Source of the DNA: a virus
Lineage: Duplodnaviria > Caudoviricetes
Length of the DNA: 64,000 bases
Strand: one strand, 5' to 3'
Virus record (IMG/VR): IMGVR_UViG_3300012953_000012
Coordinates: 32,001 to 96,000 of that record
The position numbers and the translations under genes were made by a program. The notes under the pieces were generated by a model, which was not told where the DNA came from, did no database searches, and saw nothing but the letters and a program-made list of their open reading frames with translations. This document shows positions 7,989-48,872 of the stretch, one piece after another (position 1 is the stretch's first letter; every line of letters starts with the position of its first letter).

Positions 7989-8665
7989 CTGAGGAAGAGG
8001 CCAAAGCCAGACTGCTCCCCCCTGTGCAGAAGGGTGCTTTGGTGGTGGTCGTCCGTGGCCGCAAGGTGCCACGCGGCACTATGGGCGTGGTGAGGTGGGA
8101 AGGTGACGGTGACTACGGCCCCCGTGTGGGCCTCGCTGTCGAAGGCGAGGACAAACTCGTCTACACCGCCTACAAGAACGTCGATGCTGTGTACCCTGGC
8201 CTGATGCCTGGCCAGGATCCCGAGGGCGGTTGGGTCGAACTCTACGAGCGTGTGCAGCGGGAGCAACGGCTTCCGATGAAAGGGCACCGAATCGAGCACC
8301 GAGGCTCAGGCATGAAAGGCAAGGTCTTCTGGGCGCAGGGGAGCCGTATCGGCTTCAAGTCCGACAAGGGGGTCACCAACTGGTCCGACGCCCACGAGGT
8401 CTGGATGTTGTCGGGACCCATGGAGTGCCGTTTGGATTACGTCACCGAGGTTCCCGCCGTGCCTGCATTACGGGTCCTCCTTGAAGTAGACGCCCGGTCG
8501 CTTCCGGCCCCTTTCAATGAGATCCAGTACCTGGACCCCCTTCCCCAGGGCGGCTACCGAGGTTTGAATGGTCGCCAAGAGTACGTCGCCACGTTGCCTG
8601 AGGAGGTGGCCCAGCAACACCTTCCGGTTGTGGGCCACCTCCAGGATTCCGGGCGTCCTCGGTAG
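7985..8665 (+). CDS. Hypothetical protein with SH3/KOW-like repeats
   Basis: KGALVVVVRGRKVPRGTMGVVRW and GMKGKVFW patterns; ATGA overlap. Confidence 0.65.
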   Translation: MTEEEAKARLLPPVQKGALVVVVRGRKVPRGTMGVVRWEGDGDYGPRVGLAVEGEDKLVYTAYKNVDAVYPGLMPGQDPEGGWVELYERVQREQRLPMKGHRIEHRGSGMKGKVFWAQGSRIGFKSDKGVTNWSDAHEVWMLSGPMECRLDYVTEVPAVPALRVLLEVDARSLPAPFNEIQYLDPLPQGGYRGLNGRQEYVATLPEEVAQQHLPVVGHLQDSGRPR

Positions 8666-8695
8666 CCCGCCTATCGCCCCTCCACAGTCGGAGGC
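8661..8695 (+). promoter_or_regulatory. Class III motif (GGTAG-CCCGC-CTATC) plus SD-covering hairpin CCTCC/GGAGG
   Basis: Motif 8661-8675; arms 8679-8683 and 8690-8694; ATG 8700. Confidence 0.7.
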
Positions 8696-8699
8696 TTTC

Positions 8700-8843
8700 A
8701 TGGGCTGTGGCTGTCGCAAGAAGAACGGGGCGAAAAACCCAACGGCAATCAAGAAATCTGCTCCCCAGATTCGGGTTGCCCGTGCGATCCCTCGTGAGCC
8801 TGTGACGAAGCGACTCCCCCGAGGGACGCGGGTGCGCCGATGA
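8700..8843 (+). CDS. Small basic protein, 47 aa, starting MGCGCRKK
   Basis: GGAGG SD; first gene after a class III motif. Confidence 0.65.
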   Translation: MGCGCRKKNGAKNPTAIKKSAPQIRVARAIPREPVTKRLPRGTRVRR

Positions 8844-8887
8844 CGTGCCTATGCAACCGGGTACTGTGGCCCTTGATGGAGACTTGA

Positions 8888-11800
8888 ATGGCAATCCGCG
8901 ACAAGTACTTTCCTGGCTCAACCGTCAGTCGATACCTTCCGCCGGGAGAACACTCCTGGTCTGAGGCTATCTACCAGTCCGGTAAGCCAGTCCTCGACGC
9001 TGAACTGAATCTCTCCCAGGAAGTAGGGAAGGAGATCCGGCGTCTGATCCAGCACCATGAGACCCCGTCTGGGTGGCTGCGCGGACCCGTTCCGCCCTCC
9101 CTGACAGATTTCTCGTTCGGCAACCCCGCTGGAGGCTACCCCGCTGACTCCTTCTACATGGTGAACCGCACCGCCATCGTGGCTCAGATGCCCGTCACCG
9201 TGGCCTACACGGAGAACACGGAACCTCAGAACCTCATTCAGTTGTCGCCTGCGACTCTGGACAACGGCACCCCCGCCAACGTCAAGCGCACCGACTTCGT
9301 GTTCCTGGAGGTGTTCCGTGCCCTGGTGAGCCCTTCACCACACGCCTCTGGGTCCATCACCGTCCTGACGTTCCCGACCGCAGGCTCCATCACCATCAAC
9401 GGTGTGGCACTGACCCCCGCTGGCGGGCCTCGTGGCGTCGGCATCGGAGCCGACAACTACGACAACACGTTGGTGTCAGCAGCGGCCATCGCGGCGGACA
9501 TTCGGGACGCCATCAACGACTCATCCAACTCCTGGGCTGGGGTCGTCACCGCAGAGATCGACATCTCGGTTGCAGAGCAGGTGAACATCAAGGCCACGGA
9601 TGCGTTCGCCGGTGCAGCCGGTAATGCCATCGGCTTCATTGAGTCCACAGGCGGTGCCGAGTTTACCCTCGACCCTCTCGTCGGCAATCTCACGGGCGGT
9701 GTAGACACCCCGAACAAGCCGACCCAGGCCACTATCTACAGGAACGGAAACATCCTGGCCCCGGCAGGTGTGAACCTGCCCGACCGCATCGCTGATCCCA
9801 CCATCGGGACCGAGAGCACGAAGCGTGTTCAGATCCAGTACAACATCCGCAAGACCAACCAGACCGAAGCCGTCAACTTTCAGGTCACCAACGGCTTCAT
9901 CGGTGCCAACTGGATCGCAGCCACTACGGTCCCCTCTACAGCAGACTCAGAAGTCCGGGCTCAGGCTACCCAGGTCGCCCCTGTAGGGCGCTACCGGTTC
10001 GTCCCTGCTGATGGGGTCACAGTCCTTGCCTACATCGAGGTCACAGGCGTCGGAGCCATCGCGCTTGGCGACACCATCGACGTGAACGGCGTGACGCTGA
10101 CCGCAGCGAACCCCGCCGTGAACCCCGACGAGTTTGACCCTACAGGTGCTCCCGGAGCCATCGCCACCAGCATCGTCACAGCCATCACGGCCTCGGTGGG
10201 GACTGTTGCGGCCTCCGCTTCGGGATCACTCATCGCCATCGTTCCTGCCGTAAGCGGCGACAACGTGACCCTGAGCAGTGTCTTGACGACAAGCACCTCG
10301 GTCATCACGGCGGTCAACTCGGCTGTGTCGTACCAGACGGTAGACAATGGCCTCTACATCTCTGGTGACGGCACGCAGAAGGCAGCGACTGATCTCGGCA
10401 CTGTGGACGGCTACTCCTATGCCATCCCCATGTGCTTCGTCTTCCGCCGCAACGATGCCAGCACAACTGGCGGCTTCGACCCGGCAAACAACACCAACGG
10501 TGCGCTGGCGCATGACCATGCCCCCTTCAACAACACCCACCTCACAGGCGGGGCGACTGCGATCCCGGCGTCTACGTCTGACAGGCCCGACCAGCGGTTC
10601 CACGATGTCATTGTCTCAGGGGATGTCCTTGACCTTCGACGTCAAGTGTCCCCCGGCGGTGTTGACCTCAAGGCAGAACTTGAATCGCAGATGACCGCTC
10701 TTCTCGATGGTTCCATGCACACATGGGCCATCGACACTGAGGACATCACTGAACTGGGCAACTCCTCAGGGGATGTCTCGTCGGTGTACCTGGTGTGCAA
10801 CGAGATCGGTGACCAGGACAACGTCAACGGCGAAACCATCGGCAAGTGGGATCACATCCGACGCCGGTTCGCCGATCAGCCTGTCGTTGAACGCCGCATC
10901 TTCCCCATCACGTCTGACGCCCCTTCCGGGACAAACCCCGGCCTGTTCATGGACCCCACGAGGGCTGGATGGGAGGCAGGCCAGGTCATCAACATCAACC
11001 TCGGCCAACTTGACGCCTCGGGTCTGGGGGACTGGGTTCCCACGGCCTCTCCGGTGGTGGTGACGAACCAGTGGCCTGCCGGAACCACCATCACCAACGT
11101 CCTCCGAGTCGTTCACGACGACGGCAACTACGCCCTGGCCATCGACCAGAACGTCGAGACGGATCTGATTACCGGCATCGGTACGGACCACGTCCAGATC
11201 ACCCTGGCCCCGAACAACGCGCAGGCCAACGGAGGCGTGAACGGCGACCCTGGCTACGACATCGTCCCAACCGTCGCCGGTACTTCGGCTCGCCGCATCT
11301 TCGTCGAGTTGGAGATTTCGTACCCTGCCGGGGTGGGCATCTCGGCCACGCCGGACGAGATCATCGGCGGCTCCCCGACCGTGACCCCGTACCATGGCTC
11401 GGCCCTGGAGTACGACACCAGCAAACGCCCGACAGACTTTGAAGACCTCCAGCCCCCGGCCTACCGGCCCGGCTACCGTGAGGTCATGATGGAGTACATC
11501 TGCAACGATGGTCTCACAGTCCCCGTGTCGGGATCACCCATCACTGAGGAAGTGGTGAGTGGCAGTGGCATCGACCTGATCATGTCCCGCCGCTTCTACG
11601 GCATCAAGGGTGGTGCTCCTGCCCTCATGTCCGTGACAGACATCGGTGGAGGGCTCGGCGCTGTGCCGATTGACGACGCAGCCACGACATGGGGCAACTC
11701 CGCACGCAAGATCGTCCTCTCAGGGGCGGGTGTGGCTCCCGGTGTCCAGAGCAAGTGCTCCGTGGAGTACTTCGCGCAAGACCCCATCCCTGATTTCTCC

Positions 11801-12478
11801 AGCCCCGGCGACCGCTACCAGATCGCAGTCTACTTCCGTAGCAACGCGCCCCAGACGGTTGGTGTCATGGGCGGGTTCCCGGCGACTTCCCCGTTGCCGG
11901 ACACCCTGAACCTTGAGCCGTTGGTCATGTCCCGCAACCTGTGGACGAACACCACCTCCGTGGGATCACTGGACCTGGCGTTCCCCTACAGCAACCCGTC
12001 TGACCAGATCGCCGTCAACGCTGACCAGCAAACCGGCATCAACCCTCCGTTCCCTGGCGAGTGGGCTCTCATGTCCCTGGCCAAGATCAGCGTCGGTGAC
12101 TTCGACGCCGAGACGGGCCTGCTCAACCTGCATCAGATGGTCCCAGTTGACCCCAACTCGGACTTCTCCTTCTCCAGCCGTGCGTGGGATCACGAGTTCC
12201 GTGGGCACTACCGGATTGCCGATGTGAACGCCTATCGGCCTACGGCGATGGCCCAGCCGCTCTCTGGGGTCGCGACCCACAAGGTCTTCTTCCCCTTCCT
12301 GGCTCAGACCTCCGCAGACAACGTCTACTTCCGCAAGGGAGAGGTCGTGCTCGTGGTAGTCAGTCGATACGCACTTCTTGATGGAGACAACGTGGTTCGG
12401 TTCACGGATAGCGGCACAGACACCTGTGCTGCGGTGTACCGGACACGCGGGCTACTCCTTTTGGCTTCGGAGCGATAA
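8888..12478 (+). CDS. Baseplate/tail-associated structural protein (paralog of 20791..26148)
   Basis: Shared blocks KPVLDAELNLSQE, RTDFVFLEVF, TKRVQIQYNIR, DLGTVDGYSYAIPMCFVFRRN, DVLDLRR. Confidence 0.75.
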   Translation: MAIRDKYFPGSTVSRYLPPGEHSWSEAIYQSGKPVLDAELNLSQEVGKEIRRLIQHHETPSGWLRGPVPPSLTDFSFGNPAGGYPADSFYMVNRTAIVAQMPVTVAYTENTEPQNLIQLSPATLDNGTPANVKRTDFVFLEVFRALVSPSPHASGSITVLTFPTAGSITINGVALTPAGGPRGVGIGADNYDNTLVSAAAIAADIRDAINDSSNSWAGVVTAEIDISVAEQVNIKATDAFAGAAGNAIGFIESTGGAEFTLDPLVGNLTGGVDTPNKPTQATIYRNGNILAPAGVNLPDRIADPTIGTESTKRVQIQYNIRKTNQTEAVNFQVTNGFIGANWIAATTVPSTADSEVRAQATQVAPVGRYRFVPADGVTVLAYIEVTGVGAIALGDTIDVNGVTLTAANPAVNPDEFDPTGAPGAIATSIVTAITASVGTVAASASGSLIAIVPAVSGDNVTLSSVLTTSTSVITAVNSAVSYQTVDNGLYISGDGTQKAATDLGTVDGYSYAIPMCFVFRRNDASTTGGFDPANNTNGALAHDHAPFNNTHLTGGATAIPASTSDRPDQRFHDVIVSGDVLDLRRQVSPGGVDLKAELESQMTALLDGSMHTWAIDTEDITELGNSSGDVSSVYLVCNEIGDQDNVNGETIGKWDHIRRRFADQPVVERRIFPITSDAPSGTNPGLFMDPTRAGWEAGQVININLGQLDASGLGDWVPTASPVVVTNQWPAGTTITNVLRVVHDDGNYALAIDQNVETDLITGIGTDHVQITLAPNNAQANGGVNGDPGYDIVPTVAGTSARRIFVELEISYPAGVGISATPDEIIGGSPTVTPYHGSALEYDTSKRPTDFEDLQPPAYRPGYREVMMEYICNDGLTVPVSGSPITEEVVSGSGIDLIMSRRFYGIKGGAPALMSVTDIGGGLGAVPIDDAATTWGNSARKIVLSGAGVAPGVQSKCSVEYFAQDPIPDFSSPGDRYQIAVYFRSNAPQTVGVMGGFPATSPLPDTLNLEPLVMSRNLWTNTTSVGSLDLAFPYSNPSDQIAVNADQQTGINPPFPGEWALMSLAKISVGDFDAETGLLNLHQMVPVDPNSDFSFSSRAWDHEFRGHYRIADVNAYRPTAMAQPLSGVATHKVFFPFLAQTSADNVYFRKGEVVLVVVSRYALLDGDNVVRFTDSGTDTCAAVYRTRGLLLLASER

Positions 12479-12481
12479 ACC

Positions 12482-15400
12482 ATGCCTCGTAATGTAGATC
12501 CTGGAACTATCCGAGTTGGCAAGGGACTCGCCCCCGAAGGGACGGTCGAAGACAACTCGCTGCGCTACCCGGAGCGGGATGCCGATCCCCTTCGTGTTCA
12601 CATCCATGACCCCAGCCGCGCCCACATGGCGTCGAGCATCGGTATCGTAGATGAACTCGACTGCTACGTCTCTGACGAGGTTGAGGGTGCCCTCCAGGAA
12701 CTCTGTGGCAACTCCGCTGCGGGTCGCCTCAACGGCCTGATCGCAGGCGGGACCTTCAGCGAGTTGGGTTGTCTCCCCAACGGCACGGCGGGTGGTGTCC
12801 ACGCCACGTTGACCCTGTGCTCTCCTACAGAAATCCTGATGAACGGCACGGTCCTGGACGCCACGGGCCTCACTGTGTCCGTCCCTGCGGCCAACACGGT
12901 CTACTTCATCTACCTGGACACCCAGGTCAGCAGCCCGACCTACCGAGAACTGGTCGCGACCACGGGGACCCCTCCTCAGGTCGAAGTCGGTGATCCCGAC
13001 ACCACCACCGGCCCCGGCAGCATTGAAAACGTCATGCTCGCCAAGGTCACGATGGACGCAGGCGGCAACGTCGTGTCCTGGCAGGACGCACGCTTCTTCG
13101 TGCGGAACCTCGACCGCAAGGTCACTTACAGCAGCCGCCAGGGCGAGAACGTGGACGCCTGGTCCGAAGGTTGCTTCGCCAACCTTCAAGCCTTCTTCTT
13201 CTGGGCTGAGTACTACGGAGACGGTGCGCTCCCCTCCAGTAACGAGGAAGAGAAGGGCATGGTGCTGATCCGAGGGACGCACACGATCCTCTCGACGCTC
13301 AATGTGCCCACCGACCACCTCCAGTTTGTCGGCGACGGCGAAGCCATCATTGAGTTGACCGGCAACGCCGCCTTTGATGCGGTCCTGGTGGACGCGAAGA
13401 AGGACATCACCTTCCGCAACATCACCTTCCTGTGCAACGTGGCGAGCACGGGGAGCAAGGGCATCCGTGCTGCTGGAGACTTCACCGACCTCACCGTCGA
13501 GGACTGTCGTTTCCTGAGTGGGGCGCAAAACTTCAGCGTGGCCCTTCACCTTGACGCAGGCGGCGCGGTCAACGAGCGGATCACAGTCCGTGACTGCGCG
13601 ATTGAGGCTGTCGATTGCGGTGTCAATGTCGATGGCTTTGGGTCCACGTCCTCCTGGGGAACGCTGATCGAGAACTGTTCCGTCGATTCTCAGGCGGTCG
13701 CTGCGGGCTCTGTGGGCATCCAGTTGGGTGACAACCAGACCAACGGCTATGGCACCGTCCGAGGGTGCTTTGTTTCGTCTTTTGAGACCGGGATCATGGT
13801 CAAGGACACCGGCGTCACCCTGGTTGAGGGGAACACCATCCGGGACACCATCAGCGGGATCATCTACCCCAGCGATAGTGCCATTGGTCATACGGTGGTG
13901 AACAACCACATCACGCTCGGTGACAACCTCACCCTCCATGGCATCTTCTTCGGGATCGGTCACCAGAGCATCGTGATCTCGGGCAACTACATCCGCAGCC
14001 TCATTGACGGAGGTCACCCTTCGGAGCCTTACGGCATCTCCGTCCAGGGTCGCGCGGCGAGTGAGAAGGTGAACGCCCGCATTGAGAACAACCACGTCAT
14101 TGGCTTCTACGACGCCACTGCGACTATCGGGCACGGCATCTGGGTCGTGGGGACTGACGGCGTCTGTGAGGGTGTGACCATCACAGGGAACACACTTTCC
14201 CGGAACAACATCGCCGTTGAGTCCTGGATGAACGGAACCATCACGGGGAACACCGTTGAGGCAGCCACGCTCGGTATGCCTCCGGGGCCTACAGTAGGCG
14301 GGGCGATTGATCTCACCAATGCTCGCTCCTTCACGGTGAGCGGAAACACGGTCAATGCGCGGGATGTCATCCGCCATGGGGTGTACGCCCGTGTCGGCAA
14401 GGACCTGACGGTCACGGGGAACACTGTGACGCAGCCTTTCGTCACCGGAGTCCTGCTCGACTCCGGTCCCAACTTTGGTGCAATATCGGGGATGGAGAAC
14501 TTCACCGTGAGTGGAAACACGGTCGATGCCCTTCCTGATCCGGCCAACCCCTCCCTGCCTACGGCAGACGGGATCGTCATCAGCAGCACTACGGACGACG
14601 GATCTCCCGAAATCGGTGTTGTCGATGGCAACTCCGTTCGGCGTTGTCGCCACGGAATCTTGCTGACCGGCTTCGCCATCAACGTCCCGATCCGGGACGT
14701 CACGGTGTCAAACAACATCGTCTCCGAGTGCGCGAAGGACCAGGACACCTGGGACATCTGGGACTTCCAGGACGCGGGCACCTACGGAATCGGCTGCCTC
14801 TACGCGAAGAACATCATCCTCTCAGGGAACAACATTGGCAGCGTCGGCCAGGTCACGCTCGACACGGGCGCACCACTCGTCCCTGCGAACAACGTCTTTG
14901 TCCAGGCACTGTTCACCCTCAACTGCTCGGGGGTGACGGCTCAGGGGAACACCATCCGCAACTCGCTCCCTTATGGGACGGGTCGGGCCAACGACATCGC
15001 CCTGCTTGTGGGCCGCCTTGCCGGTGATGTGGAGTGCATCAACACTAAGGTCGAAGGCAACAGCATCATCATCAACGACAGTGTGGACCCCGGTAGTCAC
15101 CAGGGCATCCTGGCCTGGGCGGACGGTACGTCGGGCGTTGCCACGGCTGGCTTCATTGACTTGTCCATCTCGGACAACACGATCCACACAGTGAACGGAG
15201 CCAGCGGTTCCGGCGTCGGCACTGGGATTCACATCGTCGCTCAGGATGAGGGTGCTATCGAAGGTGCCCGCATTGAGGGCAACCAGATTGGAAACTACCT
15301 GTCCAGCGGGATCTACGTCCAAACGGGTGATGGGAGCCCTCAGGGCGACAGCAGCATGTATCGCGTGGGCGTCCGGCACAACACGCTCAGGTCCATGGGT

Positions 15401-18397: not shown

Positions 18398-18405
18398 GAG
18401 GACCC

Positions 18406-19371: not shown

Positions 19372-19380
19372 GACACCAAC

Positions 19381-20556: not shown

Positions 20557-20558
20557 CC

Positions 20559-29801: not shown

Positions 29802-29805
29802 TGGA

Positions 29806-37044: not shown

Positions 37045-37071
37045 GGGGAGGGGGAGAGTATCTTTCGGGTA
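37044..37071 (+). promoter_or_regulatory. Class II promoter-like motif GGGGG-N17-CGGGTA
   Basis: 21 nt spacing to TA. Confidence 0.65.
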
Positions 37072-37097
37072 TTACAGGGCTCACCAGAGGTAGCATT

Positions 37098-37661
37098 ATG
37101 ACCCCCATGACTGACATCTTCTTCGTGGACGAGGACCCCACCCTGTGCGCTCAAGTGCTTTCAGACCAGCATGTTCGGACGCAGGTGGCACAAGTCGGAG
37201 CGGTTTTGGCCGCTTCTTTGTCCCACAGAGGGGTCGCAGGTGGACCGATCCTCAGCAAAGCCACCCGCCGATCCGGCGTGCGTGCGAACACCGCTGCAAT
37301 CGCCTGGGCCAACGAGAACTGGGATCACTTCATGTGGCTCGTCTTCTTCGGCATGGCCGTCATGGAGGAGCACGACCACCGATTCGGGGTCATGCACCCC
37401 TCAAGCGCAGTTGTCCTCGCAGCAGGCAACGTCGGCCATCTGTTGCATGAGGGGGATCCGCTCATCCCTGCGACCTGGCCGACAACTCAGGCGTCCCGCG
37501 AGTACATCAACCGCTACGACTTCACCCCGTTCAACGCCTACCAGAACGTCCTCCGTGACCTCTACGAGGTCTGGGCTGAGGGCGATGACTGCGCGACCTG
37601 GACCAACACCTACCCGCCCAACTGGTTGTCGGATGTAGGGGAAGTGCTGCACACCGACTGA
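37098..37661 (+). CDS. Pyrimidine-dimer DNA glycosylase (T4 endonuclease V-like) homolog
   Basis: IFFVDEDPTLCAQVLSDQHV resembles the family N-terminus; WANE..HFMWL and FGVMHPS also fit. Confidence 0.7.
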   Translation: MTPMTDIFFVDEDPTLCAQVLSDQHVRTQVAQVGAVLAASLSHRGVAGGPILSKATRRSGVRANTAAIAWANENWDHFMWLVFFGMAVMEEHDHRFGVMHPSSAVVLAAGNVGHLLHEGDPLIPATWPTTQASREYINRYDFTPFNAYQNVLRDLYEVWAEGDDCATWTNTYPPNWLSDVGEVLHTD

Positions 37662-37664
37662 CGC

Positions 37665-37679
37665 GGTAGTCCTACTATA
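37665..37679 (+). promoter_or_regulatory. Class III motif (GGTAG-TCCTA-CTATA)
   Basis: Exact spacing match in an intergenic gap; TAG here is not a stop codon. Confidence 0.65.
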
Positions 37680-37730
37680 GGACCGGGAGGGTGGAGTCTC
37701 CATGTCGCCAACCCTTCGCAGAGCCGTCTG

Positions 37731-38063
37731 ATGCCCCGCATCTACACAAAGGTCATCCCAGTGAGGACCGTGGTCGATGTAGTGAAGCGCGACCCGCAGT
37801 GGTCGAACGCTGAGGACGCCCCCACGATCTCAATCAAGGTCAAGGTGACCTTTGAGACAGTCTTCACGGAGCACAAAGAAGCCCTGTGGTTGGAGGGTGA
37901 TGTGCAGGTGTGGCCCGACCGTGGGGTGGACATCCTCGCACTGGAGCCGCAGTACGGCACCGTCATCGGCCCCCGCGTGGCTACGGTCCTGGACATTTAT
38001 GAGGACGCGCTTCGACAGGCGTTCAAGGACACCAATCTGAACATCCTGGGGGTGGCACCGTGA
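37731..38063 (+). CDS. Hypothetical protein
   Basis: Preceded by 9-codon ORF 37702..37731 with TGATG overlap. Confidence 0.65.
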   Translation: MPRIYTKVIPVRTVVDVVKRDPQWSNAEDAPTISIKVKVTFETVFTEHKEALWLEGDVQVWPDRGVDILALEPQYGTVIGPRVATVLDIYEDALRQAFKDTNLNILGVAP

Positions 38064-39142: not shown

Positions 39143-39157
39143 GGGGATTTTCTGCGA

Positions 39158-39187
39158 GGGGGGTGGGATCACTGCGCCGGTTCGGTA
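39158..39187 (+). promoter_or_regulatory. Class II promoter-like motif GGGGGG-N19-CGGTA
   Basis: 22 nt spacing to TA (one longer than the other copies). Confidence 0.55.
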
Positions 39188-39225
39188 GTACCAAGCACCT
39201 GCTTGAACCCGTTCCCGGCAAGACC

Positions 39226-40803: not shown

Positions 40804-40809
40804 ACCCGC

Positions 40810-41244
40810 ATGAACCGATCCTACATCGAAGGGATGATTAGCGAGATCATCATCAACGCTCCCAGTCCGAATGTATGGAGCGAAGGCGAGTACGAGGTCA
40901 GGGACTACCGGGGAACCGTCGAAGTACGCTTCTCTGGCTTCTCGGACCTCTGCGAGTTCGTCAACGCCGTTGAGAGGCGGGGTTGGGTAGCGACCATCAA
41001 GTCCGACGCCCGACGCCTTCTGTTCGGCGTGACCTTCGACATCCCGGCAGGCGAGGACCACGAGGGTTTGGCCTTGTTCGTGAGTGTGCGAGCCATGAAC
41101 ACCACCCTCCGAGCCTTGAAGAAGACGTACCCGGAAGTCACCCAAGAGTTCAACGCCCTTCTCGCCGCAGACGGCAAGACTTGGCAATCCGCCGCCCCTC
41201 CCCGCTGGATTCAAGGGCACCCTCACCATCGAGTAAACCCATGA
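40810..41244 (+). CDS. Hypothetical protein
   Basis: Co-directional operon, codon bias. Confidence 0.65.
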   Translation: MNRSYIEGMISEIIINAPSPNVWSEGEYEVRDYRGTVEVRFSGFSDLCEFVNAVERRGWVATIKSDARRLLFGVTFDIPAGEDHEGLALFVSVRAMNTTLRALKKTYPEVTQEFNALLAADGKTWQSAAPPRWIQGHPHHRVNP

Positions 41245-41567
41245 CCCCCACCTATGCCGTCAAGGACGGCAGGTACTCCTACACGCACATCACGGGCGAG
41301 GTCTTCGACACCGGACCCGAGATGGCGATGGTCTTCGACGTGCATGACGATCCAAGCCGCTCGATCCGCGTGACCTTGCACAAACATGGCCCTGTGGACA
41401 AGGTGACGCACTGGTACGAGGCCGCCATGGCCGCTTACAAGGAAAGCGGGCACCTTGAATGGGCTGAGGGCTTCATTCTCGTCACCGGGAAACTCGACGT
41501 GGACGAGGTGAACAAGGCCCTTGCGATCACAGGCTACTGCCCGTCGTTCCTGCCGGAAGGTGCGTGA
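41241..41567 (+). CDS. Hypothetical protein (MTPTYAVKDG...)
   Basis: ATGA overlap with upstream gene. Confidence 0.65.
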   Translation: MTPTYAVKDGRYSYTHITGEVFDTGPEMAMVFDVHDDPSRSIRVTLHKHGPVDKVTHWYEAAMAAYKESGHLEWAEGFILVTGKLDVDEVNKALAITGYCPSFLPEGA

Positions 41568-41608
41568 TGGGACTCTCTCTCCGTGTCTACCTCTACTGGA
41601 CGTGACCC

Positions 41609-42427
41609 GTGTACATTCCGAACAAGGTCCACCACTTCCTTCGCCCTCCCACCAAGGCGAACGGGGTTCCGTGCTCCCCCTCTTTCCCTGTGTCGGCGGC
41701 GTTGAAGTCTTCGGCAGCGACGTGGAACAACGCTCGCAAGTGGGCAGAGAAGGGGGCGGGTGAGCCCGACCAGCCCGAGGTCGTCTGCGAGAACCCCCCG
41801 CGAGGTGGCTACCGTATCGTCGGAGCCGAGCAGCGTGGTCAGGGTGGTCGAGCGTGGCAGGTTGTCACCCCTGACTACTTCCTCGTGGATCTCCGCGAAG
41901 ATGTGTTCCTCCCCATCCTTCTGGAGAAGGGCTTGCCCGCAACGGGGGTCATCGACGCCGAGTTTCAGTGGTGCGTGAACGGCTCCCAACTGCGATTGGA
42001 GCAGGTCGGTTCCAAGTCCCACGCGAAGTACGTCTCCGAAGACGAGTGGCATGGCCGAAAGAAGGCTCGTCCGAAGAAGAAGTACGTCGGCGTCCGTGAT
42101 CTCGTGGTCGGACAGGCGTATGCGTTTGAGGGTCACGGCGTCCCCTCACACAAGAGGTATCTCGGTCGAGTCCGCATCAAGGGCAAGATCAAGACCCTGT
42201 GGACCAGAGACGCAGCCGTGGACTTCGCCTCCCGCTCCGGTATCTGTTGGGGCCATTATCTTATGGTGATGACCGGATCCAAGGCTATCCGCAAAGCCCC
42301 CGTGACGCGGGGATGTATCAACTGCATCGACCCCTCCAAGTTCGATGTGGAGCGCATCCTTGATGGCAGTGCTCTCTTTGATGGCATCGGGCAGCAGTTT
42401 GCGCCCGAACAAGTGGAAGTGCTGTGA
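41609..42427 (+). CDS. Hypothetical protein
   Basis: Long ORF in operon. Confidence 0.65.
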   Translation: MYIPNKVHHFLRPPTKANGVPCSPSFPVSAALKSSAATWNNARKWAEKGAGEPDQPEVVCENPPRGGYRIVGAEQRGQGGRAWQVVTPDYFLVDLREDVFLPILLEKGLPATGVIDAEFQWCVNGSQLRLEQVGSKSHAKYVSEDEWHGRKKARPKKKYVGVRDLVVGQAYAFEGHGVPSHKRYLGRVRIKGKIKTLWTRDAAVDFASRSGICWGHYLMVMTGSKAIRKAPVTRGCINCIDPSKFDVERILDGSALFDGIGQQFAPEQVEVL

Positions 42428-42795
42428 GTCTTTCCAATCTGATTCAGCAGAGCGGCATCGGCGGCTCTCCGACCTGCACCTGCATGGTCTGTGGCAAGCA
42501 GGCCAAGGCGGTGACGGAGAACTGGGAGCACCCCACGGCCTTCTCCCCGCCTGACGGGTGGCACTGGATCGAGAAGGAAATGTGGGTCGAGGAAGGATAC
42601 TGCTGCGGCTGTATCCCCGCAGGCTGGAGGAAGCACTGTAGCGGCCAGTGGATCAAGCCCGGTTTCACTGGGGTTCAACAGATCAACGAGGGGCGATGGC
42701 TCACAGGCGTTGGGGTCTACGACGATCTGGTCGTCGCCATCAACGCCTGTGAAGAACGAGCCGACGAGATCCGCTCGTTCAAGGGGGTACTGTGA
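42424..42795 (+). CDS. Cys/Trp-rich hypothetical protein
   Basis: CTCMVC, YCCGC; GTGA overlap. Confidence 0.6.
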   Translation: MSLSNLIQQSGIGGSPTCTCMVCGKQAKAVTENWEHPTAFSPPDGWHWIEKEMWVEEGYCCGCIPAGWRKHCSGQWIKPGFTGVQQINEGRWLTGVGVYDDLVVAINACEERADEIRSFKGVL

Positions 42796-43115
42796 CTGAG
42801 AAGAACACACCACCATGGCAGCAGGAGCACCCCAACTACGCGGGCTGGTTCGCTGAGTACGGCGGAGACAACTGGGGAGAAGTGGGCGAGATCGTTCACC
42901 CACCGACCGCCGAAGGCCGACATGCTGCCCAAGAAGAGGCCCAAGAGTTTCAGGACTACTACGCATCCAAGACCGACGACGAGGGCTACATCGCGGAGTT
43001 GTACTCGACGGCGGCTCCGCTCGCGTTGAGCGCGGGCGGCTTCTTCGCCATGTGTGACTGCTGCGACTGGGGCTACACCGAACTCGACAGCGTCGGCTGG
43101 ATGGGTGGTGTGTAG
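42792..43115 (+). CDS. Acidic hypothetical protein
   Basis: GTGA overlap; MCDCC. Confidence 0.6.
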   Translation: MTEKNTPPWQQEHPNYAGWFAEYGGDNWGEVGEIVHPPTAEGRHAAQEEAQEFQDYYASKTDDEGYIAELYSTAAPLALSAGGFFAMCDCCDWGYTELDSVGWMGGV

Positions 43116-43316
43116 ATGGGATGGAAGATTCGACCAGACTGTGTGATCGAGGGGTGTGACTCCGAACAGGCCGTAGGGCGACAGTGGTGTCGGGATCATG
43201 ATCCCGAACGCTGCCAGGCGGCGGTGAGCATCACCACGCACTCCCACACCCAGGACCGCTGCCGCAACCGCGCCAAGCCAGGTCAACGCTTCTGCAAGAC
43301 CCACTTGAAGGGTTGA
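43116..43316 (+). CDS. Small zinc-finger-like protein
   Basis: Two C-x4-C...C-x2-H type clusters. Confidence 0.6.
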   Translation: MGWKIRPDCVIEGCDSEQAVGRQWCRDHDPERCQAAVSITTHSHTQDRCRNRAKPGQRFCKTHLKG

Positions 43317-43349
43317 GGGTAGGGTGAACCCTACCCATCGGAGGACACA

Positions 43350-43751
43350 ATGGCAAAAGGCAAGATCAAGCGCGTAGCGAACCTCGACCCCCAGAAATGG
43401 GAGAACGAGTCGTACCTGTTCGTGAAGGTGGAGGGCTCCTGGTCAGCACAGGCCGAGGAATACCTGCTGCTCACGGACCACGAGGTCACCGAGGCCAGCG
43501 ACCGGGCCAGCAAGAACACCGAGGACGTGCCTGACCTCAAGCGTGGGGTCTTCACCCGCGTGGACAACCGAGACAAGCACGCCGCCGCAGACGACTACTA
43601 CATCGCCTTCCAGGTGCGGGACGCGGACGGCAACGACGTGGACCTGATGTTCACCGAGGAGGCGATGGACCGCATCCGCAAGCGGGTCGAAGCCAACGCC
43701 GAAGACGTGGAGGCAAACAAGACTGGCTGGCTGGCAGACCTGTTCGACTAA
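43350..43751 (+). CDS. Acidic protein with internal tandem duplication
   Basis: Two similar ~55-aa halves; GGAGG SD. Confidence 0.7.
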   Translation: MAKGKIKRVANLDPQKWENESYLFVKVEGSWSAQAEEYLLLTDHEVTEASDRASKNTEDVPDLKRGVFTRVDNRDKHAAADDYYIAFQVRDADGNDVDLMFTEEAMDRIRKRVEANAEDVEANKTGWLADLFD

Positions 43752-43760
43752 GGAGCGACC

Positions 43761-43982
43761 GTGAGCAAGAACATCAAGATCATCGAGGGCAAGGACGGCA
43801 ACGACGTCGAGGTCGTGACCCGATCCGCTTCAAAGAAGCGATTGGCGCGACACCCAGACAAAGACAAGCGCCCGCTGTTCGGCGGTCCCGAGTCCGTCCT
43901 CGGTGGGCGGGTCCAGAAGGATCTGGACAACGCGCTGATGTACGCCTCGCTCGACGCGCTCATGAACCCGCAGGGGGAGTGA
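43761..43982 (+). CDS. Hypothetical protein
   Basis: AAGGAG SD before GTG. Confidence 0.65.
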   Translation: MSKNIKIIEGKDGNDVEVVTRSASKKRLARHPDKDKRPLFGGPESVLGGRVQKDLDNALMYASLDALMNPQGE

Positions 43983-44428
43983 TGTCCGACGACAAGCCCC
44001 ACACCACTATGTTCCCCATCGACCACGGCGGTGTGCTCACTGCCGCAGCCAAGGCGGCGGGATTCGTAGAGATCGCCTCGACGCCCGCCATCAACCACGG
44101 CGAGATCAAGGGGAGAAGGGGGGTCACGATGACTCACCCATGGGAAGACCCCAACCTCATGCCGCTGTACCAAGTCCAGTTGGAGACGCGGGACTTGCTC
44201 GTGTCCTACGAGATCGCCACCCCGGACTTCGACTATGTGGAGATCGCCATGGCCCACCTGCGAGAGCGGCTGCGTGATCCCCACGTCCCCATCCACTACG
44301 GCGGTGGTGGCGACATTGGCTACCACCCCATCGGTGACGGCAAGCCTGTGGTCATCGAGTGGAAGGTGACGACGGGCACCCTGAGCAAGAAGTCCAACAA
44401 CGACGAAAACGCGCCCCCCAGACCGTGA
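43982..44428 (+). CDS. Hypothetical protein
   Basis: GGGGAG SD; 3' end runs into terminator T2. Confidence 0.6.
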   Translation: MSDDKPHTTMFPIDHGGVLTAAAKAAGFVEIASTPAINHGEIKGRRGVTMTHPWEDPNLMPLYQVQLETRDLLVSYEIATPDFDYVEIAMAHLRERLRDPHVPIHYGGGGDIGYHPIGDGKPVVIEWKVTTGTLSKKSNNDENAPPRP

Positions 44429-44449
44429 GGTCCAGGGGGCGCGTTCGTC
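44400..44449 (-). terminator. Intrinsic terminator, conserved family copy T2
   Basis: ACGACGAAAACGCGCCCCC identical to T1 over 19 nt; GACC-GTGA-GGTC loop; GGGGGCGCGTTCG arm. Confidence 0.8.
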
Positions 44450-44455
44450 ATGGGA

Positions 44456-44653
44456 TTAGCGGGGGCGCAGCATCGCCACGCACTCGGCGTGGTGTTGGCG
44501 GGAGTCAGGCCCACGAAGGTCACCCTTCTCAGCCATGCACGCCATGATGGCGTACCGGGCTTCGTCGTTGGGCTTCACTACCTTCTGGTAGTAGACGCCC
44601 ACTCCGACGAGGAGGGCAAAGATGGTGGCAGCAGCAGCAATACGATCAGTCAT
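44456..44653 (-). CDS. Small membrane-anchored protein with two Cys (65 aa)
   Basis: N-terminal TM IAAAATIFALLVGVGVYY; sole gene between P3 and T2. Confidence 0.7.
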   Translation of the reverse strand: MTDRIAAAATIFALLVGVGVYYQKVVKPNDEARYAIMACMAEKGDLRGPDSRQHHAECVAMLRPR

Positions 44654-44692
44654 GTGATCTCCGTTTCAGCAGTGGTGGAGGGGAACCCCCTC

Positions 44693-44727
44693 CACCTACT
44701 TACGGAAGCAGCACCCCCTTTTAACGG
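44693..44727 (-). promoter_or_regulatory. Class I promoter-like repeat P3 (leftward, unpaired)
   Basis: CCGTTAAAA-GGGGGTG-CTGCTTCCGTAAGTAGGTG. Confidence 0.85.
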
Positions 44728-44739
44728 GGCGGGATCAAA

Positions 44740-45135
44740 CTACTTGCCCAGAGCGCCCGACACCGCTGCCTTGAAGAACAAGGCACCGAAGGTGCCGAGG
44801 AGATGCCCGGCCTTCTTGACTGCCTGACGGGCCGACTTCTTTTCGGCTCGTTCGGCATTCTGGAGGGCAGCCACAGCATCACTCGCGACACGAGGGCTGG
44901 CCCAATCGATCTTCGGGGTCTCGCCTCGCAGCATCTTGTTGATCTCACGCTTCGCGATCTTGACGCCCTCAGGGCCGAGATTCTCAACGGCGTCAGCCAT
45001 CAAGGAGAGCACGAGCGCCTTCGTGGGGTCATCGGCATCGGAAGCCAGTGCGTCCAGTTCCTCCTGAGCCTTCGCGACGGCAGCGTTGCCGACCAGTGGG
45101 ATCAGGGACTCCAGGGTGCTTGAAAAGTCAGACAT
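44740..45135 (-). CDS. Helical Ala-rich protein with hydrophobic C-terminus
   Basis: GAGGA SD; C-terminal LLGTFGALFFKAAV. Confidence 0.65.
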   Translation of the reverse strand: MSDFSSTLESLIPLVGNAAVAKAQEELDALASDADDPTKALVLSLMADAVENLGPEGVKIAKREINKMLRGETPKIDWASPRVASDAVAALQNAERAEKKSARQAVKKAGHLLGTFGALFFKAAVSGALGK

Positions 45136-45138
45136 GGC

Positions 45139-45537
45139 TCAGTCCTCCTCGGCGGGTTCGGGTGAGGCGGCAGGTGCAGCGGGGAGCGGGCAAGACAAGG
45201 GAGCGATTTCTGGCGGTTGCTCAGACGGCTCTGCCTCGATCATCCCAGCGTTCCACAGGCTCATGGACTTGTGCCACTCATGGCGAGCCTCGATGGTCAG
45301 CACGAAGTCCGCAGCCTTCTCGCACTCGGGGTCAGAGAACTGGGGTCCCTCGGCATCCGACTCGCAGGAGCAGTGCTCTTCGATGAAGGTCCGAAGGTAC
45401 TTGGCCTGCTGGGTAGCCCAGTTGTCGTACTGGTCGAGTTCGGCCTGATAGACACGGGCGTCCCGCAGGACGGTCTTGTGGGCGCACCCGGCTGTCAGAC
45501 TGACAGCGACGAGAAGCGCGGTGATTTCTGCTTTCAT
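45139..45537 (-). CDS. Lipoprotein (possible spanin-like lysis component)
   Basis: MKAEITALLVAVSLTAG-C lipobox; Cys pairs; Pro-rich tail. Confidence 0.7.
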   Translation of the reverse strand: MKAEITALLVAVSLTAGCAHKTVLRDARVYQAELDQYDNWATQQAKYLRTFIEEHCSCESDAEGPQFSDPECEKAADFVLTIEARHEWHKSMSLWNAGMIEAEPSEQPPEIAPLSCPLPAAPAASPEPAEED

Positions 45538-45541
45538 GGCG

Positions 45542-45611
45542 ATTCGCCTCCAACGATGGTTCACCGGACTATACCGGCGACACATCGTTGGAGGCGAATA
45601 GAGGGGCTACC
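45542..45611 (-). promoter_or_regulatory. Class III motif (GGTAG-CCCCT-CTATT) plus 17-bp hairpin covering the SD of the lipoprotein gene
   Basis: Motif 45611-45597; arms 45583-45599 and 45542-45558 perfectly complementary; GGAGG 45551-45547. Confidence 0.8.
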
Positions 45612-45918
45612 ACCAGTGGTGGTCAGGGTGGGAATCCAACTCGGCAACGTAGGCGGCCACGGCGGCAGCATCCCGAGCAGCCTCGATGGCTCCCACAGCC
45701 CGCTCCAGGGCAGCGTAGCGAGCGGGGTGCTCCAGGATCATGTCGGGGTCGAGGTCGATGCCGAAGGCGTCCTTGAGGGACACCGTTTCAATCTCGGCCT
45801 CTTCGCCGGGTTGGTCCCAGGTCGCAGCGCAACCAGGGGAGTAGGTCAGGGAGCCGGTCACGATGCCCATTCCGGGCAGGGTCACAGCGTCTTCGGTGGT
45901 CAGGGTCACAGTAGGCAT
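45607..45918 (-). CDS. Hypothetical protein (MPTVTLTTEDAV...)
   Basis: GGAG SD before ATG 45918. Confidence 0.65.
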   Translation of the reverse strand: MPTVTLTTEDAVTLPGMGIVTGSLTYSPGCAATWDQPGEEAEIETVSLKDAFGIDLDPDMILEHPARYAALERAVGAIEAARDAAAVAAYVAELDSHPDHHWW

Positions 45919-45943
45919 GGGGTCTCCAGGGTGGGGGTCAACA

Positions 45944-45994
45944 ACGCCGAAAATGCCCCCCGCCAACGTCGCTACTGTCGCGGGGGGGTCGCAT
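45944..45994 (-). terminator. Diverged copy T3 of the terminator family
   Basis: ACGCCGAAAATGCCCCCC...GGGGGGG.CGCAT; downstream of the P4-driven gene. Confidence 0.5.
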
Positions 45995-46017
45995 GAACAC
46001 GGTCGCTGCGGGACGCA

Positions 46018-46275
46018 CTACAGTAGTGCTGCCAGCCCAGCGAACGGGTTGTAGGTGAGGTCACTCCAGGTGTCGGCAGGGGGAAGCGGTCCTTGATACG
46101 GAGGCCGGGTCATGTCCGCGATCTCTTCGTAGAGGAAGTCCGCCAGAGCCACCATGCCAGCCTCGTCGTCCGACGCGGGGAAGATGACTCTGCCCCGAGG
46201 TCGGATGCCGTAGGTATCCTTGTAGACGTCGGAGTAGAGGGAGTACGCCTGGTCAAGGCGGGTTTGGGGGGTGAT
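46018..46275 (-). CDS. Small phage protein (YSDVYKDTYGIRPR family); start codon uncertain, possibly ATC
   Basis: Recognisable phage motif; GGAG is 5 nt before ATC at 46275. Confidence 0.55.
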   Translation of the reverse strand: MTPQTRLDQAYSLYSDVYKDTYGIRPRGRVIFPASDDEAGMVALADFLYEEIADMTRPPYQGPLPPADTWSDLTYNPFAGLAALL

Positions 46276-46479
46276 GAAAACTCCAGTTGGGGTTGATGGG
46301 GAAGGGGAACAGGAAGGGAATGTCGGACCGCCCAAGGATACGAACCTCGGACCACGACTCACTCGTTGGAGCGAGCGTCAACACATCGCCCTGCTGCTCC
46401 AACAGCAAGGATCAACGTCGGTTGTCGTGGTGACCGTCACGGCCATAAGGGAGGCAGCATCGTCGTCGCTGCCTCCTTG

Positions 46480-46514
46480 CATCTACTTACGGAAGCAGAC
46501 GAGAGTTTTAACGA
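46480..46514 (-). promoter_or_regulatory. Class I promoter-like repeat P4 (leftward)
   Basis: TCGTTAAAA-CTCTCGT-CTGCTTCCGTAAGTAGATG; A-tract 46525-46531. Confidence 0.85.
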
Positions 46515-46600
46515 GAAGGAGGCCAAAAAAAGATTCGGGTGCCTGTGAATGCCCATGGTCCCTCGGTTTTCGGGAGGTAGGGAAAAAACTCGGAGGGTGG

Positions 46601-46636
46601 CCGTTAAAAGTGCCTCCTGCTTCCGTAAGTACATGA
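46601..46636 (+). promoter_or_regulatory. Class I promoter-like repeat P5 (rightward)
   Basis: CCGTTAAAA-GTGCCTC-CTGCTTCCGTAAGTACATGA; A-tract about 46583-46588. Confidence 0.85.
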
Positions 46637-46685
46637 CACCCCCTCTCCCCTTCCCCGTGCCGCCCAGCGGCCAACCGGAGCACCC

Positions 46686-47279
46686 ATGACTTACAACCCC
46701 AACAGCCTGACTGACCGCCGCAACCTGGCGACCGCTCTCTGCGCTCGCCTCACCGAGTGCGGCTTCACCCCCGTCACCCGCAAGGGGACGAAGGAAGCCA
46801 TCTACTCCCGTCCTGTGGATGGCACGGACGGCACCATCAAGGTGCTGGTCTACACCAGCGTCGTCCCTGTCCGGGGCGGCTTCGCCGTCCGCAAGGAAGG
46901 CAAGGACGCCATCCGCGTCTGCGCCGTCTACACCGGCAAGGGCGGCAAGGAACGCGGCATCGCCCGTGCCGACAAGCGGGTCAACCGCACTGGCACCATC
47001 GAGGCCACTGTCGAGCGCACCTACCAGCGGATGCGCGACGTCTACAAGACCGCCGCAACCTGCGAGCGGTGCCGCTGTGGCGCTCCGAAGTTCGTGAGCA
47101 AGAAGGGCAACGAGGTCTGTGCTGACCTGTGCTTCCTCTCGGACAGCGAGCGCAACCGCCCGGCCCCGCGCCATCCTCGTCGGTCCTACGGTCGGGGCTA
47201 CCGGCCTCGTCGGCGTCGGTCGTCCTACGTTTCGACGTCCTACGACATCGAGTGCGCTCTCAACGGGGTGGCCCCATGA
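46686..47279 (+). CDS. Basic hypothetical protein with C-terminal Cys4 cluster and Arg-rich tail
   Basis: CERCRCGAP...CADLC; GGAG SD. Confidence 0.7.
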   Translation: MTYNPNSLTDRRNLATALCARLTECGFTPVTRKGTKEAIYSRPVDGTDGTIKVLVYTSVVPVRGGFAVRKEGKDAIRVCAVYTGKGGKERGIARADKRVNRTGTIEATVERTYQRMRDVYKTAATCERCRCGAPKFVSKKGNEVCADLCFLSDSERNRPAPRHPRRSYGRGYRPRRRRSSYVSTSYDIECALNGVAP

Positions 47280-47458
47280 TCCGCCACCTGACCGCCCTGT
47301 TCCATCGGGCACGCTGCGACCGTGCCGTGTTGATCCCGATGCTCGACAAACTCACCCCCCTGGAGCAGCAAGCCTTGTGGCGACTGCTCCAGTCCGTTCA
47401 AGACGACGCCCAGCGCGACGGTGCCCGCAAGGGTGCCCGCCAGCCGTGGCGTCGATGA
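47276..47458 (+). CDS. Small hypothetical protein (MIRHLTALF...)
   Basis: ATGA overlap. Confidence 0.6.
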   Translation: MIRHLTALFHRARCDRAVLIPMLDKLTPLEQQALWRLLQSVQDDAQRDGARKGARQPWRR

Positions 47459-47488
47459 TCCCCCACCCCACACGCCAGGAGGTATCCC

Positions 47489-48352
47489 ATGGCTGACATC
47501 AACAAACTCATTGAGCAGTTCGCTGCCGGGGTCAAGTCCTCTACTCGTGAGGACGTGACCAGCGGCAACCTGGAAGGCTTCAAGGACTTCAACCTGTCCG
47601 CGAAGCCCGCAACCCCCCGCAAGACCACCACGCCCACTGTGACCCCGCTGGAAGCCGCCCAGGCAGTCCGCGAGGCTGTGGCCGCGAAGGGCGGTCGCCG
47701 TCCGAAGGTCACCTACTGGAAGCCCGTCGCCGCGAAGACCCTGGGCATCAGCAAGTTGTTCGCCAAGCGATGGCAGGCTGTCCTGGACGCCGGGATCGAC
47801 GCGGGCCTGTTCCGCATCGACACCGAGACCCTGGCTCACCCCATCCTCGTCGCGCTCGACCCTGAGCCGGAACCCGAGGTCGAGGAGCCGGTTGCCGTGA
47901 CCCGCCCCCGCGTGGTCGAGGACAACGACGACTTCGACTACGACCGCTCCTGGCCTCCCGAAGGCTGGGTCGCCCCTGTGACACTCCCTTGTGGCCACAT
48001 GAACCACAAGGGCCACGGAGTCACCGAGGACGACCCGAAGCAGGTCGCCGCCCGTGCGGAAGGCTTCTGCTGCGCTGCTGCGAAGCAGAACGCGCAGCAG
48101 GTCGCCCGGCTGAACCCCGGCACGTCTGGACGGAACGTCCACCTTCACGTCAACTGGCGTGTCCGTGGGCTGACCCATCCGGTCCCCAAGGCTTTGCGCC
48201 GCTCCCCTGAGCGGGAAGCCAGCGGTGGCTTCCCCGGCCTCTGCTGTGATCCCGAGTCCGGCCTCTACATCGGAGGTCTGGGCAACAACTGTCGCCACTA
48301 CCACACCGGCTCTGAACGCTGTGTGATCCATGCACCGAAGGAGGTCAAGTGA
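47489..48352 (+). CDS. Hypothetical protein with Cys/His-rich C-terminus
   Basis: AGGAGG SD. Confidence 0.7.
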   Translation: MADINKLIEQFAAGVKSSTREDVTSGNLEGFKDFNLSAKPATPRKTTTPTVTPLEAAQAVREAVAAKGGRRPKVTYWKPVAAKTLGISKLFAKRWQAVLDAGIDAGLFRIDTETLAHPILVALDPEPEPEVEEPVAVTRPRVVEDNDDFDYDRSWPPEGWVAPVTLPCGHMNHKGHGVTEDDPKQVAARAEGFCCAAAKQNAQQVARLNPGTSGRNVHLHVNWRVRGLTHPVPKALRRSPEREASGGFPGLCCDPESGLYIGGLGNNCRHYHTGSERCVIHAPKEVK

Positions 48353-48624
48353 TGTCTGCTGTTCAACCCCTCGTGGCTGTAGCCACGATCCCCGTCCCGA
48401 CCGGCTGGCGGTTCGTCCTGGAGGACGACATGCCCAGCATCGAGCGTGACGTGGGAGACTTCACCCTCACCGTTGGTTTGGACGACGGCAAGTGGCGCTG
48501 GTGGCTCTGCCCCCGTGGCCACAGCGGTGCCGTCCCAAGCCCCGGCAGCGGTGCGGACATGGTGGACGCCATCTGGCAGGTCTTCGACGCCCTCGCCCGC
48601 CGCCTTGATGGAGGTGGAGCATGA
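48349..48624 (+). CDS. Hypothetical protein
   Basis: GGAGG SD, GTGA overlap. Confidence 0.6.
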   Translation: MMSAVQPLVAVATIPVPTGWRFVLEDDMPSIERDVGDFTLTVGLDDGKWRWWLCPRGHSGAVPSPGSGADMVDAIWQVFDALARRLDGGGA

Positions 48625-48839
48625 CCCGCTGTGACCGCTGCCCGAAGCCCCTCGGCGTCCATCGGGTGTCGTGGTTCAACCTCGACACCATCTGCACTCG
48701 CTGTCAGGCCCAGGAAGAAGCCCACCCCGACTACGCCTATGCCCGCGATGTAGAACGCAAGCGGGTACAGGTTGGTGACTACAACTTCGTTGGAGTCGGC
48801 TGGCCTGGAGTCAACGGCAGGGTGCTCCGCACCCGGTAG
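48621..48839 (+). CDS. Conserved small phage zinc-binding protein (CDRC...FNLDTICTRC...GDYNF.G.G)
   Basis: Recognisable phage family pattern. Confidence 0.65.
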   Translation: MTRCDRCPKPLGVHRVSWFNLDTICTRCQAQEEAHPDYAYARDVERKRVQVGDYNFVGVGWPGVNGRVLRTR

Positions 48840-48872
48840 ACGGGCTATCGCCTCCGACTGTTCGGAGGCGAT
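48835..48872 (+). promoter_or_regulatory. Class III motif (GGTAG-ACGGG-CTATC) plus 11-bp hairpin covering the SD
   Basis: ATCGCCTCCGA-CTGT-TCGGAGGCGAT (48847-48872); GGAGG 48864-48868. Confidence 0.8.

Follow-up and report, generated by a model that had tools for sequence, protein, structure and literature searches.

In bacteriophage T4, the late promoters of e, soc, 49 and I-TevI lie inside hairpins that sequester the ribosome-binding site (PMC3014915, PMC2988022), and the same mechanism is found in I-TevII, I-TevIII and segB and in mobE of phage Aeh1 (PMC2988022). We analyzed a 64,000-nucleotide (nt) stretch of viral DNA, hereafter the window, which corresponds to bases 32001 to 96000 of the linear 205,564-base-pair (bp) IMG/VR contig IMGVR_UViG_3300012953_000012 (62% GC; completeness estimated by CheckV at 46%). 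Its source is an uncultured marine jumbo phage that belongs to a large clade of uncultured huge phages. Based on the T4 precedent, which is genuine, an initial annotation of the window had proposed that hairpins lock the Shine-Dalgarno (SD) sequence directly after the motif CTAT, exactly where read-through from early (class I) units meets late (class III) genes, and that the phage uses this translational timing switch repeatedly. Four sites were named: site 1 at 8679-8694(+), site 2 at 48847-48872(+), site 3 at 45599-45542(-) and site 4 at 4387-4415(+). All four stems are present, but only those of sites 2 and 3 are exceptional, and at these two a switch of the T4 e/soc/I-TevI type is plausible. 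The likeness to T4 e, soc, 49 and I-TevI lies in an SD buried in a helix that would form only in upstream early or middle transcripts, in a late promoter that overlaps the DNA of the 5′ arm, so that late genes can sit inside early units, and in conservation of the structure among relatives.

At site 2, the 5′ arm ATCGCCTCCGA (48847-48857) and the 3′ arm TCGGAGGCGAT (48862-48872) enclose the loop CTGT; the SD, GGAGG (48864-68), is part of the 3′ arm. The predicted fold has a stability of -20.8 kcal/mol (z score, -5.0), which was equaled by 0 of 200 shuffled sequences, and in a 95-nt context the predicted probability that the SD is paired was 1.00. The gene behind this lock (48877-50046(+)) starts with a GTG codon 8 nt past the SD and encodes a baseplate gp25/W-like protein, as indicated by a PHROG baseplate match; its homologues match PF10934 or carry the name “baseplate assembly protein W.” We rejected the ATG at 48871 as the start codon, since relatives use an aligned GTG, TTG or ATG at 48877 and one of them, L005, has an in-frame TAG just upstream (L-numbers denote the orthologous sequences of relatives).

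We compared 19 distinct orthologous baseplate leaders, the most divergent from relatives with roughly 53-60% amino-acid identity. All 12 sequences of the nearest clade have the 5′ arm flush with CTAT, and it extends no further than position +10. Nearly every sequence has a loop of its own (CTGT, CCTT, AGCATG, CAGTTGT, CTG, AGGA). The inner pair of the stem is A-U in the window, L089 and L090 and U-A in L004, L091, L095, L099 and L107, with an extra C-G pair in four of the latter five, and three positions show G-U variants. Ten of 12 orthologues retain GAT, the 3′ partner of C+1 and of the AT in CTAT, while the next 4-5 nt vary. RNAalifold applied to a MAFFT alignment identified nine conserved pairs.

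The lock at site 3 (45542-45599, minus strand) is a 17-bp stem formed by ATTCGCCTCCAACGATG (45599-45583) and CATCGTTGGAGGCGAAT (45558-45542), with the SD at 45551-45547. Its predicted stability is -43.7 kcal/mol (z score, -8.3). Fold prediction for a short form of the RNA beginning near CTAT+12 freed most of the SD. The gene behind this stem (45139-45537(-)) codes for a predicted lipoprotein of 132 amino acids with the lipobox LTAGC and a proline-rich C terminus, for which a family search gave no match. Among the relatives, L086 carries the compensatory change CCAAC/GTTGG to CCAAG/CTTGG, converting a C-G pair to G-C, and L002 carries a G-U variant. L003 has lost the outer lock and retained an inner hairpin. 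This inner hairpin, CCGG-TATAGT-CCGG (45564-45577, minus strand), lies in the loop of the 17-bp stem; it is unique in the genome, yet it is conserved in relatives, even in those devoid of the outer lock (L003 and L101). The sequence CGGTATAGTCC in the same loop was considered as a second class of promoter and rejected, being unique in the genome.

The CTAT that precedes the locks forms the last four bases of a 14-nt element, (c)GGTAG-N5-CTAT, with about 30 occurrences in the 205-kb contig, where the exact form TAG-N5-CTAT is found 33 times against about 9 expected. An SD and a start codon follow 28 high-scoring copies at 23-73 nt, mostly 23-36 nt, and the copies are oriented with the genes. 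Divergent junctions are filled by back-to-back motifs, as at genome positions 14006(-) and 14055(+), leaving no space for another promoter, which argues that the motif is the promoter itself. The motif is conserved across the clade and still stands before baseplate orthologues with only about 40% amino-acid identity. AT-richer relatives spell it CTATA(AT), and the 297-kb relative G001 has 43 copies followed by an SD and a start codon. We therefore take GGTAG-N5-CTAT to be the clade's late promoter. Its 6-N5-4 layout matches that of the -24/-12 elements of sigma-54 promoters, by analogy only. The motif is partly dyad symmetric (TAG-N5-CTA) and therefore scores on the opposite strand too.

At sites 1 to 3, the TAG of the promoter is also the stop codon of the preceding open reading frame (ORF). 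The promoter of site 1 (8661-8674(+), GGTAG-CCCGC-CTAT) thus ends ORF 7937-8665 with its TAG at 8663-8665, that of site 2 (48835-48848(+), GGTAG-ACGGG-CTAT) ends the 72-amino-acid ORF 48621-48839 at 48837-48839, and that of site 3 (45598-45611(-), GGTAG-CCCCT-CTAT) ends ORF 45966-45607 at 45609-45607. Site 4 (motif and stem together, 4384-4415(+)) has a degenerate motif, ATAC-CGCCT-CTAT, with TAC replacing TAG and a position weight matrix score below 8.

The early promoters form a distinct, sigma-70-like class (TTAAAA-N17-TAAGTA) that takes the form of a T-run, CGTTAAAAC-N6-7-CTGCTTCCGTAAGTA and then nGTGA. The contig contains about 20 copies, often as back-to-back divergent pairs; in G001 the class is spelled differently, GGTTCAAC-N8-TATCTCCGTATA. 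Early copies are located 0.9-2.2 kb upstream of sites 1 to 3 on the same strand, which bears out the claim that class I units end at these sites. The promoter at 7504-7532(+) (GTTAAAAC-N8-GCTTCCGTAAGTA) drives 7590-8665 toward site 1, that at 46603-46631(+) drives 46686-48839 toward site 2, and that at 46484-46512(-), back to back with the preceding one, drives 46408-45607 toward site 3. No terminator-like hairpin was found between the upstream early promoters and the locks at sites 2 and 3, and we infer that early transcripts read through into both. Further early promoters are present at 7453-7481(-), 44699-44727(-), 62158(-), 62247(+) and 63160(+). Early leaders (7563-7590, 46655-46685 and others) carry a small clade-conserved hairpin just before the SD, GCCnC-ACWG-GnGGC-CAA-n-GGAG, as they do in G001.

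At sites 2 and 3, a helix is thus predicted over the SD, the late promoter overlaps the DNA of the 5′ arm, and the stems begin at the AT of CTAT. The pairing with promoter bases argues that the stems act, and form, only in read-through RNA. The same argument applies to a 15-bp lock of G001 at 139252 (-32.5 kcal/mol; z score, -6.2), whose 5′ arm spans CTAT-10 to +4 and hence lies inside the promoter. This lock is followed by TTTCTTGT, a T-rich tail that might make it a transcription terminator as well. A different view of the hairpins would be that they serve mainly to stop read-through or as 3′-end elements, by terminating or pausing early transcription ahead of the late gene or by protecting the early mRNA at its 3′ end, with SD occlusion as a secondary effect. 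They begin 9 nt past the stop codon of the last early gene, the tail of the G001 lock could make it an intrinsic terminator, and the phage uses strong terminators elsewhere. These canonical intrinsic terminators consist of 14-17-bp GC stems followed by TTTTG or TTCGTTTTG and are found at genome positions 98638-98668 (window coordinate 66638, outside the window), 7868, 16886 and 194721; a relaxed scan returned mostly false positives, and we used long-stem matches alone. However, no T-run follows the stem at site 2, at site 3 or at a 10-bp lock at genome position 103997, unlike in the real terminators, and at site 3 the 3′ arm falls on the SD rather than upstream of it despite a leader of 60 nt. 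We therefore consider it unlikely that stopping read-through is the main role of these hairpins.

We classified the late promoters of a pair of genomes, this one (G000) and its relative G001, by their nearest upstream promoter on the same strand. The three strongest locks of the pair (z scores, -7.4, -7.3 and -9.0) are all at early-to-late junctions. Strong locks occurred at 3 of 9 such junctions compared with 1 of 61 other late promoters (Fisher P = 0.006), with thresholds set post hoc and small counts. The remaining 6 of the 9 junctions have no strong lock; one of them, that of late promoter w66711, carries in its place the canonical terminator at genome 98638-98668, which separates the early unit from the promoter. 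In addition, one G001 lock that passed the cutoff is located behind genes driven by a late promoter. To say that locks sit “exactly” where class I meets class III was therefore an overstatement.

Sites 1 and 4 differ from the other two. The stem of site 1 comprises 5 bp, CCTCC (8679-8683) with GGAGG (8690-8694). Its fold has a predicted stability of -7.9 kcal/mol and a z score of -2.2, which becomes -0.5 when the promoter is included in the folding window, and orthologues keep 4 bp in L167 and none in L171. The ORF behind it (8700-8843(+)) encodes a CxC protein of 47 amino acids that begins with MGCGCRKK and is conserved in L167, L171 and L168-170; it precedes giant ORFs of 1196, 1971 and 1785 amino acids without family matches. 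The stem of site 4, TCTCCG/CGGAGA (4387-4392 and 4410-4415, plus strand), has 6-7 bp and a 17-nt loop, and its fold is marginal (-12.4 kcal/mol; z score, -1.9).

Short stems of this kind are common in a genome of 62% GC, as a helix of 5 bp or more covers the SD in 46% of the genes that lack a promoter motif. Only long helices are linked to the promoter: an SD helix of at least 8 bp was found in 4 of 28 promoter genes and in 3 of 105 controls, of which one conceals a variant promoter, GCTAC-N5-CTAT, at genome position 103157; no orthologues were found for the gene behind that lock. The region after CTAT is itself rich in pyrimidines, with C or T at positions +4 to +8 in 19-24 of 28 promoters, and CCTC or CTCC occurs within +1 to +12 in 11 of 28 promoters compared with 5.3 expected. 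This composition can account for the weak stems. Thus, sites 1 and 4 are at genome background and are most likely by-products of a pyrimidine stretch that faces a purine-rich SD, and in this respect the idea of a switch used repeatedly is supported at sites 2 and 3, by their geometry, conservation and upstream early promoter, but not for sites 1 and 4. The same explanation could be extended to all of the hairpins, as the pyrimidine stretch lies about 10 nt from the SD and would yield short stems by chance, without selection. For the set as a whole we find this very unlikely: it leaves unexplained the perfect 12- and 17-bp stems with z scores of -5 to -8, their flanking pairs outside the SD core, and their maintenance with swaps in relatives. 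It is the best reading of sites 1 and 4 only, whose z scores are weak and, for site 1, whose stem is not maintained in relatives.

We then considered where late transcripts start. Across 65 distinct leaders, the start codon follows CTAT at no less than 23-24 nt, a sharp lower limit, the SD window almost never starts before +15, and the frequency of A rises at +9/+10, after the pyrimidine stretch. With respect to the polymerase, PF00940 of the T7-like RNA polymerases had no match in the 205-kb contig, which is about 46% complete (control genomes also lacked the family), and no multisubunit RNA polymerase domain was found in the contig. Beside the baseplate genes, ORF 55182-56090(-) encodes a protein of 302 amino acids whose family profile matches sigma-H (PDB 3mzy_A; E value, 2e-4). 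Nine of 26 homologues match Pfam Sigma70_r2, and JGI calls several of them “sigma24 family.” By these similarities the protein looks like a divergent sigma-70-family factor and is a candidate late sigma. A 756-amino-acid ORF was also considered as an extracytoplasmic function sigma factor and was rejected, as it had no Pfam sigma match. Taken together, the leader floor, the rise of A at +9/+10, the lack of matches to a T7-like or multisubunit polymerase and the presence of a sigma-like ORF favor a sigma-type geometry, in which late RNA would start about 6-11 nt past CTAT, where the 5′ arm ends or farther downstream.

If transcription started about 2 nt past CTAT instead, the stem would be part of all transcripts and would act as a constitutive leader hairpin, stabilizing the mRNA, throttling translation of low-copy proteins or both, with no role in timing. 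CTAT-N-G is similar to the -5 to +1 segment of T7 promoters, G is the most common base at CTAT+2 (16 of 28 promoters), the T7 phi10 RNA starts with a stem-loop, and few copies of baseplate gp25/W-like proteins are needed. Nevertheless, the contig yielded no T7-like RNA polymerase domain, the SD is never nearer than about +13-15, the stems pair with the AT of CTAT through a conserved partner GAT, and the arm of the G001 lock lies within the promoter, all of which argue against such a start. We thus view a constitutive hairpin as quite improbable.

The model that we prefer for sites 2 and 3 is an SD lock embedded in the promoter that makes translation dependent on the transcription start, and we think it somewhat likelier to be right than wrong. 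For host RNA polymerase with a phage sigma-like factor, GGTAG-N5-CTAT would probably serve as an extended -10-type element. A minority of the late promoters have, between the AT of CTAT and about +10, bases complementary to the SD region of the following gene. Long RNAs initiated at upstream early promoters would carry both arms and fold into the 12-bp or 17-bp helix, blocking ribosome loading. In contrast, RNAs initiated at the late promoter would begin some 6-11 nt after CTAT, inside or past the 5′ arm, with the SD free. Translation of the baseplate gene (48877) and the lipoprotein gene (45537, minus strand) would thereby be tied to their own promoters and to late times of infection. One could also envisage the stems as RNase III-type processing sites that split the early and late parts of long transcripts, given that site 3 offers about 24 stacked base pairs (17 outer and 7 inner) and that T7 has RNase III sites between its genes. 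Since 12 bp at site 2 and 10 bp at genome 103997 would make short substrates for RNase III and nothing ties the stems to cleavage, this is highly improbable.

Several observations weigh against a start-dependent lock. The junction statistic (3/9 versus 1/61) comes from post hoc thresholds and small counts, and the 10-bp lock at genome 103997 is located behind genes driven by a late promoter, with a z score of -3.8, or -3.4 in the junction count, just under the cutoff. Predicted SD pairing as such showed no enrichment, at 0.73 in promoter-proximal genes versus 0.68 in 105 control genes (P = 0.14). Several related clades (L006, L092-94 and L103) have only a weak baseplate lock or lack it; outside the nearest clade we found a weak wobble stem, CCTTT/GGAGG, an alternative stem (AGGCACC/GGTGCCT in L132) or none (L103 and L109). 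Covariation is thin, with one swapped pair per site and probably few independent events. RNAalifold detected no both-sided change on the MAFFT alignment of site 2, because MAFFT misaligns the inner pair. The covariation that was to be looked for in relatives is therefore seen in part: the stems are kept with G-U variants and a few swaps, but not as both-sided changes called by the program. As for the start, the T7-like appearance of CTAT-N-G must be considered, as a start at CTAT+2 would leave 8 bp of the site 2 stem in late RNA, and a phage polymerase could have been missed in a contig of about 46% completeness. For 8 kb of the sequence no RNA run was listed, and RNA from two metatranscriptomes amounts to a single 151-nt contig (49953-50099) within the late genes, which is uninformative on starts.

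The start-dependent lock proposed for sites 2 and 3 can be compared with known systems. Relative to T4 e, soc, 49 and I-TevI, the lineage is unrelated, being that of an uncultured marine jumbo phage of 62% GC known here from its sequence. The late promoter is GGTAG-N5-CTAT rather than TATAAATA, the presumed sigma differs, and the guarded genes code for a baseplate protein and a lipoprotein, behind GC-rich, perfect stems of 12-17 bp. The hairpins of Aeh1 mobE and of T4 I-TevII, I-TevIII and segB are similar in that the logic is reused within one phage group (PMC2988022). However, they guard homing endonuclease genes, whereas here a nearby GIY-YIG gene (54427-54843) is unguarded. As with T4 gp55 (TATAAATA) and phiEco32 gp36 (TAATGTATA), middle or late genes are preceded by a recurring compact promoter, about 9-14 nt long and devoid of a -35 element, and the phage encodes a divergent sigma, here a putative one. 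The promoter described here differs in sequence and is partly dyad symmetric (TAG-N5-CTA), and its link to the sigma-like protein is putative. In the T7 phi10 leader, a stem-loop also starts beside the end of a CTATA-type promoter, but that stem lacks the SD and is contained in the promoter's own transcript, whereas the stems of sites 2 and 3 include the SD and reach into the promoter.

Close relatives of this phage were sought in several ways. Megablast of 12 kb against GenBank phages gave zero matches, and no cultured relative was found by megablast or tblastn, the latter returning just one unannotated 485-kb uncultured phage. The relatives used here originate from marine and other metagenomes, including one TARA sample. 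Recognizable genes code for an SNF2 helicase, DnaB, PolA and baseplate J and W-like proteins; Pfam and PHROG searches with the giant ORFs and the hairpin-adjacent genes were mostly empty. In a contig from a marine metagenome run (X2), position 44712 is joined to 46595, and the 1882-nt block between two early promoters is absent. This junction suggests that cassettes are gained and lost by recombination at early-promoter repeats. At another late promoter, 37667(+) (region 37667-37735), a 9-codon mini-ORF (ATG at 37702) follows, and its stop codon overlaps the ATG of gene 37731 (TGATG), which has no SD of its own. Expression of gene 37731 looks like translational coupling through a leader peptide.

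On a wider scale, the late promoter might be a module used across the clade, in which the spacer and the bases after CTAT can double as an anti-SD, restricting translation of certain late genes to RNA from their own promoter, and replace the terminators that would otherwise insulate late genes placed within early units, sometimes with a U-tail that may both terminate and lock. We put this forward tentatively and would expect it to fail more often than to hold. The mechanism of the switch itself is textbook, and the gain would thus be in annotation and generality rather than in principle. If the start-dependent lock at sites 2 and 3 is real, it would provide a testable prediction of late starts, at about CTAT+6 to +11, for phages that cannot yet be grown, and it would help to separate early from late genes in contigs of huge phages. 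It would also mean that the start-dependent translational switch of T4 arose or persisted in an unrelated lineage of uncultivated jumbo phages that uses a different late promoter.

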